Below, in pieces: positions 21,358-25,658 of a DNA stretch of 32,000 bases (positions are counted from its first letter, which is position 1; each line of letters starts with the position of its first letter). Both the position numbers and the translations under genes were made by a program. The notes beneath the pieces were generated by a model. It searched no databases, had not been told where the DNA came from, and saw nothing but the letters and a program-made list of their open reading frames with translations. The DNA is from Ktedonobacterales bacterium (GTDB lineage Bacteria > Chloroflexota > Ktedonobacteria > Ktedonobacterales > JADMIN01). The stretch spans positions 990,001-1,022,000 of the forward strand of contig CP126532.1 of the NCBI GenBank assembly GCA_030167145.1. Direction: 5' to 3'.

Positions 21358-21479
21358 CCGCCGCGAGCAAGGCCAAACGGAACCCAATGTTGTTGTTGGT
21401 GTTGTCCGGCCTGTTGTTGTTGCGGTAGGCTGCGCGCGCGTTGATGGCGTTGTTGTTCCACGAGCCGCCGCGCAGCACA
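21358..21479 (-). repeat. DGR template repeat (TR)
   Basis: 122 nt, non-coding. It is homologous to the 3' end of the 23184-25658 gene. In the target frame it reads [40 protein letters not shown] with 11 AAC codons. The 3' 33 nt are identical to the VR, and the 5' 21 nt differ from it at one base. Confidence 0.85.
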
Positions 21480-21528
21480 TATCTATCCGGTCTCACCCCA
21501 CAGACCGGCGCTGTCTCGCCCTGAGCGC

Positions 21529-21927
21529 TCAGGAAGAGGCCGCACCGGGAACTGCCGTTGTTGGTGTTGCGATGATGGTCGTTTTGGTGCGACAGCTGCG
21601 CCGCCATGCCTGCACCAGCCGCCCAAGCTCGGCCAAGCATTCGCTGGCATACTCGTACTGGTTGACGCTGATGAGCAACAGCCGCTCGCTGAGCCGCAGA
21701 TGGAAGCGCACCAAAGCGAGTTGCGCCGCCACCTCGTTCAGGTGCGCCAGCGCCGTGGCGGGTTCGGCGCTCTGGCCAGCGCGAATCAGCGCCTCGTGCG
21801 CGGCGAAGGTGGCGCGCTGAACGGCGGCAGCCACGACGAAACGCTGCTGACGAGGGAACTTGACCGAGAGTGGGATGAGCCAGGCGACGAACTCAAACAT
21901 CTTGACGAAGACGGGCGATTCCTGCAT
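21529..21927 (-). CDS. avd: DGR accessory variability determinant (Avd-like four-helix-bundle protein)
   Basis: About 132 aa and helical, with VFVKMFEFVAWLIPLSVKFPRQQRF...AAVQRATFAAHEALIRAG typical of Avd/four-helix-bundle proteins. It lies between the RT and the TR. Start at ATG 21927 (GGAGAGAG upstream); an alternative ATG at 21900 would overlap the RT stop as ATGTTTGA. Confidence 0.75.
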   Translation of the reverse strand: MQESPVFVKMFEFVAWLIPLSVKFPRQQRFVVAAAVQRATFAAHEALIRAGQSAEPATALAHLNEVAAQLALVRFHLRLSERLLLISVNQYEYASECLAELGRLVQAWRRSCRTKTTIIATPTTAVPGAASS

Positions 21928-23073: not shown

Positions 23074-23100
23074 GCGTGAAAATCGTCAAAATTTTCACGC
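23074..23100 (-). other. Perfect 10-bp hairpin in the AT-rich target-RT spacer
   Basis: GCGTGAAAAT (23074-23083), a 7-nt loop, then ATTTTCACGC (23091-23100). It lies 84 nt past the target stop and 27 nt before the RT start. There is no U tract. Confidence 0.5.
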
Positions 23101-23183
23101 TGCGCGCGAGAGAAACACCCGCCCACATCACACAATCAATGTAATTGTTGGATGTATAGAAAATAGAAAATAGCATACTTACA

Positions 23184-25658
23184 TTATGAACCAGCCGCCG
23201 CGAGCAAGGCCAAACGGAACCCAATGTAGAGGTCGCTGCTCCGGGTAGGCCGCGCGCGCGAGGATGGCGAGGAGCCCCACGAGCCGACGCGCAGCACACG
23301 ATTTTCAGTAGAATTGTCCAGGTTCTCACGTCCATCTGTGCTAGAATATGGGTAAGGTTTGTAGAGCGAGCTATTCCACTCCCAGACGTTTCCGGCCAGG
23401 TCTTGCGCGCCGCAGGGGCTAGCACCGTTGGGGTAGCTGCCCACCGGCGTTGTGCCGTTCTTGCCGCTCTCGCGGGTGTTGGCGCGGGATTGGTCGAAGG
23501 TGTCGCCCCAGGGATAGAGACGGCTGGCGCGGCGCTGTGGATCCCAACGGGCCGCTTTTTCCCATTCGGCTTCGGTGGGCAGGCGCCAGGGCTGACCAGT
23601 GAGCTTGGCAAGCCAGGCGGCGTAGGCCACGGCGTCGTGCCAGGAGACATAGACCACCGGATGATCGAGTTTGCCCTGCTGGGTGGTCCAGTCATTCGGC
23701 GCGGCATGGCCAGAGCGGACAAAGCAGGCGTATTCGGCGACGGTGATGGGGTAGCGCGCGATCCAGTAGGCGGGTAGGGTGACGTCGTGCTGCGGTTGTT
23801 CGCTTGCCTGGGCCTGTGTATCCTGGCGCGGGTCGCTGCCCATGCGGAAGGGTCCGGCGGGCACCTGGCAGAGCGGGGCGATGAGGAATTGCGCGCCGGC
23901 GACGTTGTGGCCGGTGTAGCCAAGCTGCGCCAGGCGCGGGGCGACGGTGGGCGGGGGGAAGAGTTCCGCGCGGACCTGGGCGACGAGAGATGAGTCAGGT
24001 GGGGTGGTGCGTGCGGCGGCTTGCACGAGGTTCCATGCGCCGGCAAGGTCGCCGCTGGCAGCGGTGAGGCGTGCCAGGATGAGGTGCTCGGCGGTGGTGG
24101 CATCGGGGAGCGCGACAAGCTCACGCGCAAGCGACAGCGCCTCGGGGTTGGATTTGGCGGCGGTGGAACTGAGGAAGCCGCCACGTTGGAGGCAGGCCCA
24201 GGCTTCGGCGGGGAGGGAAAGGGTAGCGCAGAGGCGGGCGAGGGCGAGGTCTTGCGCAGGGGCAGGCGGGGTGGGCGCGCGGCTGGCAAGGGCGCGGGCG
24301 GCGGTGACAGCCTCATCCTGGCGGCCCGCGCGGCGCAGCAGGTCGGCGCGGGCGAGCTGGCGGTCGCGGTCGTCGGGGGCGAGGGAGAGTTCGGCGTCAA
24401 GGGTGGCGAGGGCGTCGGGCCACTGCTGGCGCTGGATCTGCTGTTCGAGTTGCGTGGCGAGGGCGACGAGAGTGGCGCTGCGCTCTAGGGCCAGCGCGGG
24501 GTCGTTGGGGGCAAGTTTGGTGGCGGAGTGGACAGCGCGGGTCGCTTCGCTGAGGTCGTTCGCGGTGCGGGCGGCACGGGCGAGGGTGAGATGGTCGGCG
24601 GCGGTGGCGTCAGAGCGGGCGGCGAGCTGGCGGGCGATGGCAAGCGCGTCGGCGTCGCGGCCCAGGTGGGTGAGCGCGTCGAGGCGGACGGCGAGCCAGG
24701 CGGGGTCGTCGCGGCGCAGAAAGAGGGCCTCGGCGGTGCGGCTGAGGACTTCGTTCCAGTCGTTCTGCGCTTGCAGGATGGGGACGTATTCGCGCAGGAT
24801 GTCGAGGCGGGTGGCGTCGTCGGCAAGTGCGTCGGCTTTCTTCAGCAGCGGCGCGGCGTCGGCGTAGCGTTTGAGTTGGGCGTAGATGCGGGCGAGGGCG
24901 CGCATGGTCGGCAGGTCCAGCGGGTCGAGCTTCAGGGCGGCTTCGAGCGCCTGGCAGGCATCCGAAGGGCGGCTGAGTTCGAGGAAGGCGCGACCGCGCA
25001 TGCGGTAGAGGTCCAGGGTGGCGGATTTGGGGGCCTCGGCGAGCAGGAGATCGGAGCGGTCGGCGACGGCGTGCCAGTCGTTGGCGTTGTAGGCGTCGGC
25101 GATGCGCTGCGGCAGTTGCGCGAGGCTGGCGGGGAGCGCGGCGGCGGGGATGGGCGCGGAGGCGAGGGTGGAGGCGGGCGAGTGGGCGTAGCCGCCGGTG
25201 GCGTTCGTGGCGGTGGCGTGGCGGGCGTAGTCGGCGTCACCGGCGCGGATGGCGGCGAGCAGGGCGGCAAAGGCGGCGGGATAATCGGTGGTGGCGTCGT
25301 AATATTGCAGCGTGGCCCAGAGCGGCTGGACGGTGCGGGGGTCACGGGCGGCGGCGACGAGACGGATCACGCCACGCATCTGGCCGTAAAGCACGCGGTT
25401 CTGGGCAGCGTTGACCTCCATCGCCACGGCGTCGGAGGCGAGGGAGTGGGGTGTTTCGACGAGGACCAGCCAGTCGCATTTGGCAAGACCTTCGTTGATG
25501 CGCTTGAGGAAGTCGCCTTCGCGGATGTCGTGCATGTCCACCCAGACGTAGGCCCCGGTGTTGCGGAGATCGTCGGCGAACGTCAGCGTGAAGGTGTCGT
25601 CTTTGCGGCTGTGGCTGACGAAGATGCGGGGCGTTTGGGTGGCGCTGGATGCTGACAT
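23184..25658 (-). CDS. DGR target protein: N-terminal TIR domain, central TPR array, C-terminal FGE-sulfatase/C-type-lectin-fold domain carrying the VR
   Basis: 824 aa. TIR_2-like N-terminus: [11 protein letters not shown]...[50 protein letters not shown], with the conserved Glu at residue 81. Residues about 190-560 are TPR-like. The C-terminus has FGE-fold blocks [44 protein letters not shown] and RVLRVGSW. Confidence 0.85.
   Translation of the reverse strand: [824 protein letters not shown]
23194..23297 (-). repeat. DGR variable repeat (VR) at the 3' end of the target gene
   Basis: 104 nt encoding [34 protein letters not shown]. Its flanks match the TR, and the differences are concentrated at TR AAC codons. 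VR and TR diverge immediately after GCTCGCGGCGG (the IMH-like boundary). Confidence 0.8.

Follow-up and report, generated by a model that had tools for sequence, protein, structure and literature searches.

A stretch of 32,000 nucleotides from a Ktedonobacterales bacterium (positions 990,001 to 1,022,000 of contig CP126532.1, assembly GCA_030167145.1; referred to here as the window) carries on its minus strand a locus that we regard, with high confidence, as a genuine diversity-generating retroelement (DGR) with a reverse transcriptase (RT), the accessory protein Avd, a template repeat (TR), a variable repeat (VR) and a spacer RNA, for which the mechanism proposed below is the best explanation. 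The element is a chromosomal DGR of a large Chloroflexota-centred lineage. The DGR itself is ordinary for its lineage, and what is worth carrying forward is an aberrant VR allele together with a covarying TR:spacer RNA. An original prediction had placed the DGR parts on the minus strand between positions 21358 and 25658, and open reading frames (ORFs), profile matches and a TR/VR alignment located all of them at these places. Its DGR reading was likewise borne out by an RT that is nearest to the bRT of Bordetella phage BPP-1, an Avd that scores above the bAvd cut-off and TR/VR mismatches that are adenine-specific.

Layout of the element and of related loci

The coding parts of the element are as follows, with nucleotide positions of protein domains computed from amino acid positions.

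25658..23184, minus strand: target ORF of 824 aa (ORF list)
25257..25625, minus strand: TIR_2 domain of the target, a putative effector, aa 12-134, 62.9 bits (Pfam)
23208..23867, minus strand: FGE-sulfatase domain with C-type-lectin fold, a putative ligand-binding sensor, aa 598-817, 178 bits (Pfam)
23060-23056, minus strand: GGAGG, Shine-Dalgarno-like site of the RT (sequence)
23047..21893, minus strand: DGR RT of 384 aa with IGNQTSQ and YVDD (translation, profile and PDB searches)
21927..21529, minus strand: Avd, 132 aa from ATG, or 143 aa from GTG at 21960 (Pfam, NCBIfam)

For comparison, 169 loci with relatives of the RT were collected (designated by L numbers below), and one script was run on 165 of them plus the window to find RT, Avd and repeat pairs with an adenine bias. 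The layout was counted in the 99 loci in which all parts were found.

VR-RT-Avd-TR, as in the window: 58 of 99 loci
RT-Avd-TR-VR: 18 of 99 loci
VR-Avd-TR-RT, the classical order: 14 of 99 loci
Other orders: 9 of 99 loci

The predicted order of target (with its VR), RT, Avd and TR is indeed present, but it is not unusual given the 58 loci with an identical layout and the RT-Avd-TR core shared by 76 of the 99 complete related loci. Target-RT-Avd-TR-spacer is the standard layout of this large RT lineage. It falls outside the three main architectures described for DGRs with avd, namely B1 (avd-TR-RT), B2 (avd-RT-TR) and B3 (TR-(avd)-RT), among 48 variants in all (Wu et al. 2018, PMC5758913). A scan of a genome collection returned RT relatives of 52-63% identity, and the taxa in which relatives are found include Chromatiaceae, Thiothrix and many filamentous Chloroflexota. 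Exact searches of a contig index, with the RT of the window and with an identical protein, gave no match.

An RT of the DGR kind accompanied by Avd

Both motifs that had been read as the mark of a DGR RT, IGNQTSQ and YVDD, are found in the 384-aa translation, and they follow the I/LGxxxSQ form (as opposed to QGxxxSP of group II RTs) and the YxDD site, respectively. When all PDB sequences were searched, the best match was the BPP-1 bRT (8ub7_A, E 3.5e-47), followed by group II intron RTs at E 2e-20. Residues I208, G209 and Q214 within IGNQTSQ align with bRT I181, G182 and Q187, palm residues that the cryo-EM structure shows in contact with template and dNTP (Handa et al., bioRxiv 10.1101/2023.10.23.563531), and G209, N210, T212, S213 and Q214 are invariant across 28 relatives. 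The predicted overlap of an Avd-like ORF with the RT 3' end amounts to 35 nt, and the encoded protein scores 57 bits with Pfam PF22296 (bAvd), above the cut-off of 40, while matches of Avd to Bbp7/Avd in the PDB are weak. The final codons of avd (21529-21600, minus strand) contain GGCAGUUCCC, which is conserved at the nucleotide level in the window and its relatives.

Could this RT instead be that of a retron or group II intron, or else a defence-associated RT (DRT), with the repeat pair being incidental? An identical protein is named 'MAG: Retron-type RNA-directed DNA polymerase [Ktedonobacterales bacterium]' at NCBI (MAG, metagenome-assembled genome), and the RT does give weak matches to group II, retron and DRT models. 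However, these matches are all sub-threshold, with scores far under the curated NCBIfam cut-offs for the group II model TIGR04416 (126.8 bits versus 300) and the retron St85 model NF038233 (53.4 bits versus 235), and the DGR bRT surpasses other solved RTs by 27 orders of magnitude. Moreover, neither group II intron nor retron RNAs gave an Rfam match in the whole 32-kb window, no other Rfam RNA lies nearby, and an Avd gene, an adenine-specific TR/VR pair and a site for the initiation of mutagenic homing (IMH) are all there. Model cut-offs, PDB ranking, Rfam and the adenine-specific TR/VR pair thus rule out retron or group II identity and make this alternative exceedingly improbable; the public 'Retron-type' name is a generic label. 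Judged by its motif and by PDB and profile scores, the RT is of the DGR kind.

An adenine-specific TR/VR pair with an IMH/IMH* contrast

The repeats and their 3' ends were delimited by aligning and comparing TR with VR.

21479..21350, minus strand: non-coding TR of 130 nt; it contains 32 adenines and, in the target frame, 11 AAC codons (TR/VR alignment)
21357-21350, minus strand: IMH* tail, the last 8 nt of the TR, ATGATTCA (TR/VR comparison)
23298..23187, minus strand: VR of 112 nt, ending 1 nt before the TAA stop codon of the target (TR/VR alignment)
23187..23225, minus strand: IMH, made up of 31 GC-rich nt that match the TR exactly, then CTGGTTCA (TR/VR comparison)

The TR starts 49 nt past the avd stop, in agreement with the predicted TR of 122 nt with 11 AAC codons about 50 nt past avd. 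It measures 122 nt when counted to 21358 and 130 nt when the IMH*-like tail to 21350 is included. The VR, placed by the prediction at the extreme 3' end of the target gene, stops immediately before the stop codon as listed. Seventeen substitutions separate the two repeats, and 15 of them fall on TR adenines (23 adenines in 112 columns of a gapped alignment; hypergeometric P = 3.6e-11), which are replaced by G six times, by T five times and by C four times. This alignment, which the prediction had put forward as a check, also exposed a VR that is 18 nt too short, as described in the next section. No second TR-like copy was found in the 32-kb window with TR adenines treated as wildcards.

The identical 3' ends claimed for TR and VR were recovered as the 31-mer ATTGGGTTCCGTTTGGCCTTGCTCGCGGCGG, located at 21388-21358 in the TR and 23225-23195 in the VR. 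The further claim that the repeats diverge past this 31-mer was right about the contrast between IMH and IMH*, but homology continues for 8 nt more, with ATGATTCA in the TR and CTGGTTCA in the VR, and these differ only by two fixed changes (A>C and A>G). In L081, L084/85, L166 and L168, too, the TR has GG-ATGA where the VR has GG-CTGG, a fixed contrast, and more distant relatives have an analogous contrast of CCA(T/C)(A/G)(G/A) and CCC... at this place. Given that the two IMH* adenines are constant across relatives, they are not randomly mutagenised, as expected for an IMH*/IMH pair. The sequence pattern is that of IMH and IMH*, with a putative directional function. No hairpin was seen directly after the IMH. 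The mechanical ORF list also contains a 154-aa ORF (21176-21640, minus strand) that crosses the TR in the frame of the target; it was rejected as a gene since it represents the TR plus spacer RNA.

Two related loci from different metagenomes, L084 and L085, encode an identical RT protein (P0015, 75% identical to the RT of the window) and can be compared directly. In the 722 nt upstream of their RT there are 26 differences, 21 of which are in the VR, while the next ~1600 nt hold one difference, leaving 6 differences outside the VR over ~2260 nt in total. The VR differences are at TR adenines. This VR divergence suggests that the lineage is active, as judged from loci other than the window.

A shortened and partly out-of-frame VR

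The VR copy in the assembly is aberrant: it is short, partly frameshifted and has lost scaffold residues. It falls 18 nt short of the TR (112 versus 130 nt) through the loss of 1, 15 and 2 nt next to AAC runs. The 1-nt deletion lies in the first AACAACAAC, the 15 and 2 nt are gone around CGCAACAACAACAGG-CCGG-AC, and together the deletions take out AGCAACAACAACAGGCAC. Besides the adenine changes there are two non-adenine substitutions, G>T and C>G. From the first deletion to the later ones, 25 nt match the TR everywhere except at adenine sites but are translated with a shift of one base; overall the loss preserves the frame, and the target ORF is open to its normal stop. A protein alignment showed that the scaffold RGGSW-x7-ARAAxR-x10-GFR is encoded by the TR and by the six close relatives. 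The 'complete' DGR of the prediction was complete in that all parts are found, but its VR is shortened and frameshifted, and the RNA 3' of the TR lies outside the interval that had been given.

Equal length of TR and VR, a typical though not a defining DGR property, is not seen in the window. TR/VR gaps were absent from 80 of the 99 related loci and 1-5 nt long in 18, and the 18-nt gap of the window is the largest. Length differences nevertheless occur elsewhere. The TR of L083 (1758-1836) is 9 nt shorter than its own VR and is missing CGACAGGAA, which lies between AGGAAC repeats and is present in that VR and in the TRs of L084 and L085; in L169 the VR is 9 nt longer than the TR (repeats at 6480-6601 and 4609-4739); and L084 has a 1-nt insertion in the TR/VR comparison. 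The differences in L083 and L169 are multiples of 3. In curated DGRs, TR/VR length differences were reported in 25 of 372 cases (~7%), with 74% of indels adjoining AAC, and RT slippage was proposed for the AAC-adjacent indels (Wu et al. 2018, PMC5758913).

The window VR may be a slippage product, the result of later decay or a consensus artefact. In a decaying element, the machinery would be intact while the VR has mutated since the last homing, the TIR-lectin gene is becoming a pseudogene and the element is turning into a relic. An 18-nt shortfall with an internal frameshift and two non-adenine changes, the loss of the ARAAxR segment and of the RGGSW glycine, and a gap that is the largest in a set of mostly gapless loci would all suit such a history. 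By contrast, a net deletion that is in frame with an ORF reaching its normal stop, the intact state of RT, Avd, TR, spacer RNA and both homology arms, and the presence of length differences in the otherwise normal loci L083, L084 and L169 do not; and deletions that all lie at or beside AAC runs are expected of RT slippage rather than of random decay (Wu et al., PMC5758913). We consider a relic unlikely. If, instead, many VR variants had been collapsed in the assembly, spurious indels would result and the real alleles would be of full length. That the source is a MAG, that populations with an active DGR have hypervariable VRs and that frame-breaking 1-nt VR indels occur in the metagenomic relatives L030, L040, L084, L103 and L116 speak for such an artefact, but clean deletions of 15, 2 and 1 nt that jointly restore the frame are atypical of consensus error, and indels of this kind are also present in curated DGRs of isolate genomes (Wu et al., PMC5758913); an artefact is likewise improbable. 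The aberration most likely arose from RT slippage in AAC runs at the last homing, or from later mutation. Since neither homology arm is damaged, the VR could be repaired by a further homing event. The damaged VR thus offers a concrete case for asking whether DGRs sometimes wreck, then repair, their own targets.

A structured spacer RNA and its covarying helix with the TR flank

The predicted end of the element at 21358 did not hold: a structured RNA runs ~210 nt further, to about 21138, and the ~210 nt past the TR are conserved in all relatives. Its predicted elements are the following.

21349..21204, minus strand: spacer-like structured RNA (RNAalifold, covariance model)
21340-21290, minus strand: P1 stem-loop (RNAalifold)
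21283-21275, minus strand: strand TTGAACCAG, pairing with the TR flank 21356-21350 (RNAalifold)
21277-21256, minus strand: P2 hairpin (RNAalifold)
21254-21221, minus strand: P3, a variable hairpin (RNAalifold)
21220-21204, minus strand: A-rich stretch GCGAaAUAcAAAAA (alignment)
21203..21138, minus strand: P4, a long hairpin rich in GC at the end of the conserved RNA, GGCGCGCG...CGCGCGUC (fold, 9-sequence alignment)

RNAalifold, applied to a plain MAFFT alignment of 9 close relatives, returned a long-range helix, P1 enclosed by this helix, P2 and P3, with compensatory changes in 20 of 42 pairs. The long-range helix joins 6 nt just past the IMH* to a strand ~70 nt downstream, and in the window UUCA (21353-21350) would pair with UGAA (21282-21279). 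A covariance model built from the 9-relative alignment gave 24 matches in 100 loci, with a match of 141.9 bits at 21365..21206 in the window, and nearly all matches start ~8 nt before the IMH* adenine of the TR where this anchor can be located. In an alignment fitted to the structure of the covariance model, and thus biased toward that structure (the RNAalifold result is less biased), 88.9% of cells were paired compared with 69.7% in shuffles (0 of 500 reached the observed value) and 31-49% in slid controls, and double changes were seen in 31 of 42 pairs, including all 6 pairs of the long-range helix. These alignment-based pair counts are better evidence than a crude test of own-versus-other complementarity, in which the difference was significant but weak (6.64 versus 5.92, P = 3e-8). 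Taken together, covariation establishes the predicted TR-flank:spacer helix, which by analogy with BPP-1 would act in cDNA priming.

By inspection, we infer that the helix would be extended by G21355-C21277 and U21356-A21276; a group that is more distant has C:G in place of the U:A of this extension (TR ...CACGAC..., spacer ...AGACGG...). The terminal hairpin P4 has a folding energy of -37.4 kcal/mol (z = -2.5) and shows compensatory changes among the 9 aligned sequences, and a U-tract after it is absent. The RNA after the TR (21100-21560) had no Rfam match at gathering or E-value threshold. To look for a BPP-1-like 'stop' duplex, the spacer was matched by RNAduplex to the 75 nt that precede the TR, but all pairings obtained spanned the whole length and were uninformative. 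In the window and its relatives, a conserved GGUC-UGUGGGG-GACC-like hairpin lies within the last 50 nt ahead of the TR, and the alignment upstream of the TR contains a possible long-range helix (CCGG/CCGG, CCAG/CUGG, AUGG/CCAU). By analogy, these conserved upstream elements may be the counterpart of the upstream half of the BPP-1 'stop' element. A helix that covaries across dozens of loci represents an independent sequence-based test of the cis-priming model, previously worked out only for the Bordetella phage, and it names the nucleotides to mutate.

A TIR-TPR-lectin protein as the target

Between its N-terminal TIR_2 domain and its C-terminal FGE-sulfatase domain, the target has matches to TPR families from aa 216 onward (Pfam). 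The TIR domain is similar to the defence TIRs ThsB and SAVED-TIR (PADLOC), an N-terminal hydrophobic segment was not seen by eye, and the VR is located at the C-terminal end of the FGE-sulfatase domain, the FGE type of C-type-lectin fold (Pfam). The protein is most plausibly a cytoplasmic sensor-effector of a conflict or immune system, in which a variable ligand-binding tip is linked to a TIR effector. A target of the TIR_2-(TPR)-FGE kind adjoins RT and bAvd in all six close relatives examined, and every one of the Ktedonobacterales relatives with 69-77% RT identity has a TIR_2-FGE target, RT and bAvd. The genes around the cassette differ between close relatives. A 764-aa TPR protein (17682-19976) was considered as a part of the system and rejected, as it is not homologous to the TPR neighbours of L169 and L081. 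In L167, two VRs (618-741 and 4065-4189) lie in two TIR-FGE-type targets that flank the RT, with one TR, and the set of adenine substitutions differs between the two copies.

Upstream motif, flanks and genomic context

An AT-rich gap of 136 nt separates the target from the RT, and a motif followed by a palindrome is found within the sequence preceding the RT.

23110..23074, minus strand: CGCGCG-NAG-CG(C/T)GA with an A/T-rich palindrome, located 27 nt before the RT start (alignment by inspection)

The palindrome forms a 10-bp hairpin in the window (23100-23074), and by inspection the CGCGCG-NAG-CG(C/T)GA motif recurs in L081, L084/85, L166, L168 and L169. This motif may be a promoter, operator or other regulatory site of the RT-avd-TR transcript.

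The cassette is chromosomal, with mnmG upstream on the opposite strand and no base-composition anomaly over the cassette. Further away there is an M-box (magnesium) riboswitch (11712-11881, plus strand, 131 bits), followed by two tandem Nramp paralogues that have 300-nt stretches in common at 70-84% identity and then by an MgtE-N/CBS protein (ORFs 12223-13617, 13639-15042 and 15070-16536).

Both flanks of the DGR contain a composite repeat of ~120-210 nt with short GC hairpins (e.g. CTCGGCCATAAATGGCCGGAG, GGCATGAATGCC and GGCAGACAGGAATGTCTGCC) at 20141-20257, 20976-21109 and 25880-26092, with further sites at 20476-20517, 20636-20789 and 25726-25783. It is in direct orientation on the two flanks and occurs once more in a 1.2-kb non-coding stretch downstream. 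The hairpin GGCGGACAGGAATGTCCGCCCCAC of this repeat is present twice in L169, just upstream of the RT, and given this occurrence the copies are probably elements of the order that resemble repetitive extragenic palindromes or miniature inverted-repeat transposable elements, and not cassette boundaries. A search of the flanks for inverted repeats with 14-nt arms found none because the flank hairpins have stems of 7-8 nt. Elsewhere, about 7 copies of an 18-nt unit, CGGGCGTCCACCGGMCCA, are found at 30567-30708, ending in the hairpin GGGCGTCCACCGGACGCCC and then CTAC; this hairpin with CTAC recurs in the intergenic stretches 17439-17479 and 19957-19997. The non-coding stretch downstream of the DGR also holds a perfect 9-nt tandem repeat, AGTGGCCGG x 3.9, at 20790-20833.

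Proposed mechanism

RT, avd, TR and the ~210-nt structured spacer would probably be made as one transcript that starts in the 136-nt AT-rich gap past the target, and the RT and Avd would bind the TR-spacer RNA. As covariation shows, AUGAUUCA just 3' of the TR pairs with the spacer strand UUGAACCAG, which by analogy with BPP-1 would place the RT at the G-rich end of the TR. The RT would then copy the TR to cDNA while misincorporating opposite adenines, and the cDNA, directed by the IMH, would replace the VR at the 3' end of the target. As a result, up to 11 AAC codons and other adenine-containing codons could be recoded in the C-type-lectin-fold tip.

Several observations weigh against reading the locus in this way. 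The window VR is without the conserved ARAAxR segment, which is encoded by non-adenine TR positions, and the second glycine of the otherwise invariant RGGSW is a valine, and the present target protein may be non-functional through these lesions. A consensus scan of 20800-26300 on the minus strand found neither a sigma-70-like promoter nor an intrinsic terminator. The NCBIfam model DivGenRetAVD gives Avd 71.7 bits, just under its cut-off of 80. Apart from the bias of the pair-count alignment mentioned above, a helix that reaches as far as the conserved CCAG adenine is in competition with the predicted P2, and the priming nucleotide is a guess. Finally, we infer the role of the TIR-lectin protein from domain content and the literature only, and activity of the window element itself is putative.

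A broader proposal is possible though doubtful: that a Chloroflexota RT-Avd-TR lineage has its own 3'-terminal DGR RNA (P1-P4), that the 'AUGA' of its IMH* is fixed by pairing with the priming spacer CCAG, and that AAC-slippage indels, including the 18-nt frameshifting loss, are a regular second diversification mode of single-chain TIR-lectin sensors. Ktedonobacterales are a mycelial and poorly studied order of Chloroflexota. If the proposal were true, TIR-lectin proteins would be self-contained, somatically variable immune receptors of mycelial bacteria. The locus itself provides a well-resolved DGR from the Ktedonobacterales and corrects the public 'Retron-type' annotation.

Comparison with known systems

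The DGR of phage BPP-1 (brt, avd, TR, Sp, mtd) is the closest point of reference. Both systems have an RT with IGxxxSQ and YxDD, the bRT being the nearest solved relative, as well as an Avd accessory protein, adenine-specific TR/VR differences, a VR in the C-terminal end of a domain with C-type-lectin fold, TR-specific differences that follow a GC-rich IMH, and a structured RNA 3' of the TR of which one strand pairs (in the window, as predicted) with the TR 3' end. In BPP-1, a spacer adenosine within the duplex of template (TR) and primer (Sp) primes cDNA synthesis (Handa et al., bioRxiv 10.1101/2023.10.23.563531). By contrast, the window is arranged as target-RT-avd-TR-spacer instead of target-avd-TR-spacer-RT, such that its spacer would end the transcript and not precede brt. 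The window element is chromosomal, with mnmG, Nramp and M-box neighbours, whereas that of BPP-1 resides in a phage, and its target is a putatively cytoplasmic TIR-TPR protein as opposed to a tail-fibre receptor-binding protein. The lectin fold of the window is of the FGE-sulfatase type, and no hairpin is found directly past its IMH.

The VR lesion resembles the 'noncanonical mutagenesis' DGRs of Wu et al., which also have AAC-adjacent indels, few non-adenine substitutions and frameshifting cases. It differs from them in comprising 18 nt in three pieces and in removing conserved scaffold residues, not only variable ones.

A VR in an FGE-sulfatase-type lectin fold is also known from Treponema denticola TvpA and from cyanobacterial targets (Wu et al. 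2018, PMC5758913; Vallota-Eastman et al. 2020, PMC7517822). In these targets, too, the GGSW...ARAAxR...GFR scaffold is encoded by non-adenine TR positions. Cyanobacterial DGR targets have N-terminal signalling or effector domains. Treponema DGRs belong to architecture C and have an HRDC accessory gene (Wu et al. 2018, PMC5758913), whereas the window has Avd within an RT-avd-TR core.

With respect to its target, the window is reminiscent of clade 5 DGRs (Roux 2021; Dore 2024), in which TIR and other effector domains of conflict systems are joined to a VR in a C-terminal lectin fold. The target of Thiohalocapsa PB-PSB1 DGR 2, a clade 5 member, has CHAT and TIR domains (Dore et al. 2024, PMC10907252). 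The window combines TIR_2, TPR and FGE-sulfatase in one protein, and its likeness to clade 5 is one of target domains and of the taxa of its relatives (Chromatiaceae, Thiothrix and filamentous Chloroflexota being a hint). In contrast to clade 5 DGRs, this single TIR-TPR-FGE protein is without STAND NTPase, CHAT, vWA and MoxR partners, and its neighbouring genes are not conserved in relatives. For cellular DGRs of multicellular bacteria, a role as hypervariable antigen sensor has been proposed (Dore et al. 2024, PMC10907252). The window target, as a predicted cytoplasmic protein in which a TIR effector is combined with a variable lectin tip, would fit this proposal, and the TIR-TPR-lectin protein is consistent with the idea that cellular DGRs diversify intracellular immune sensors.

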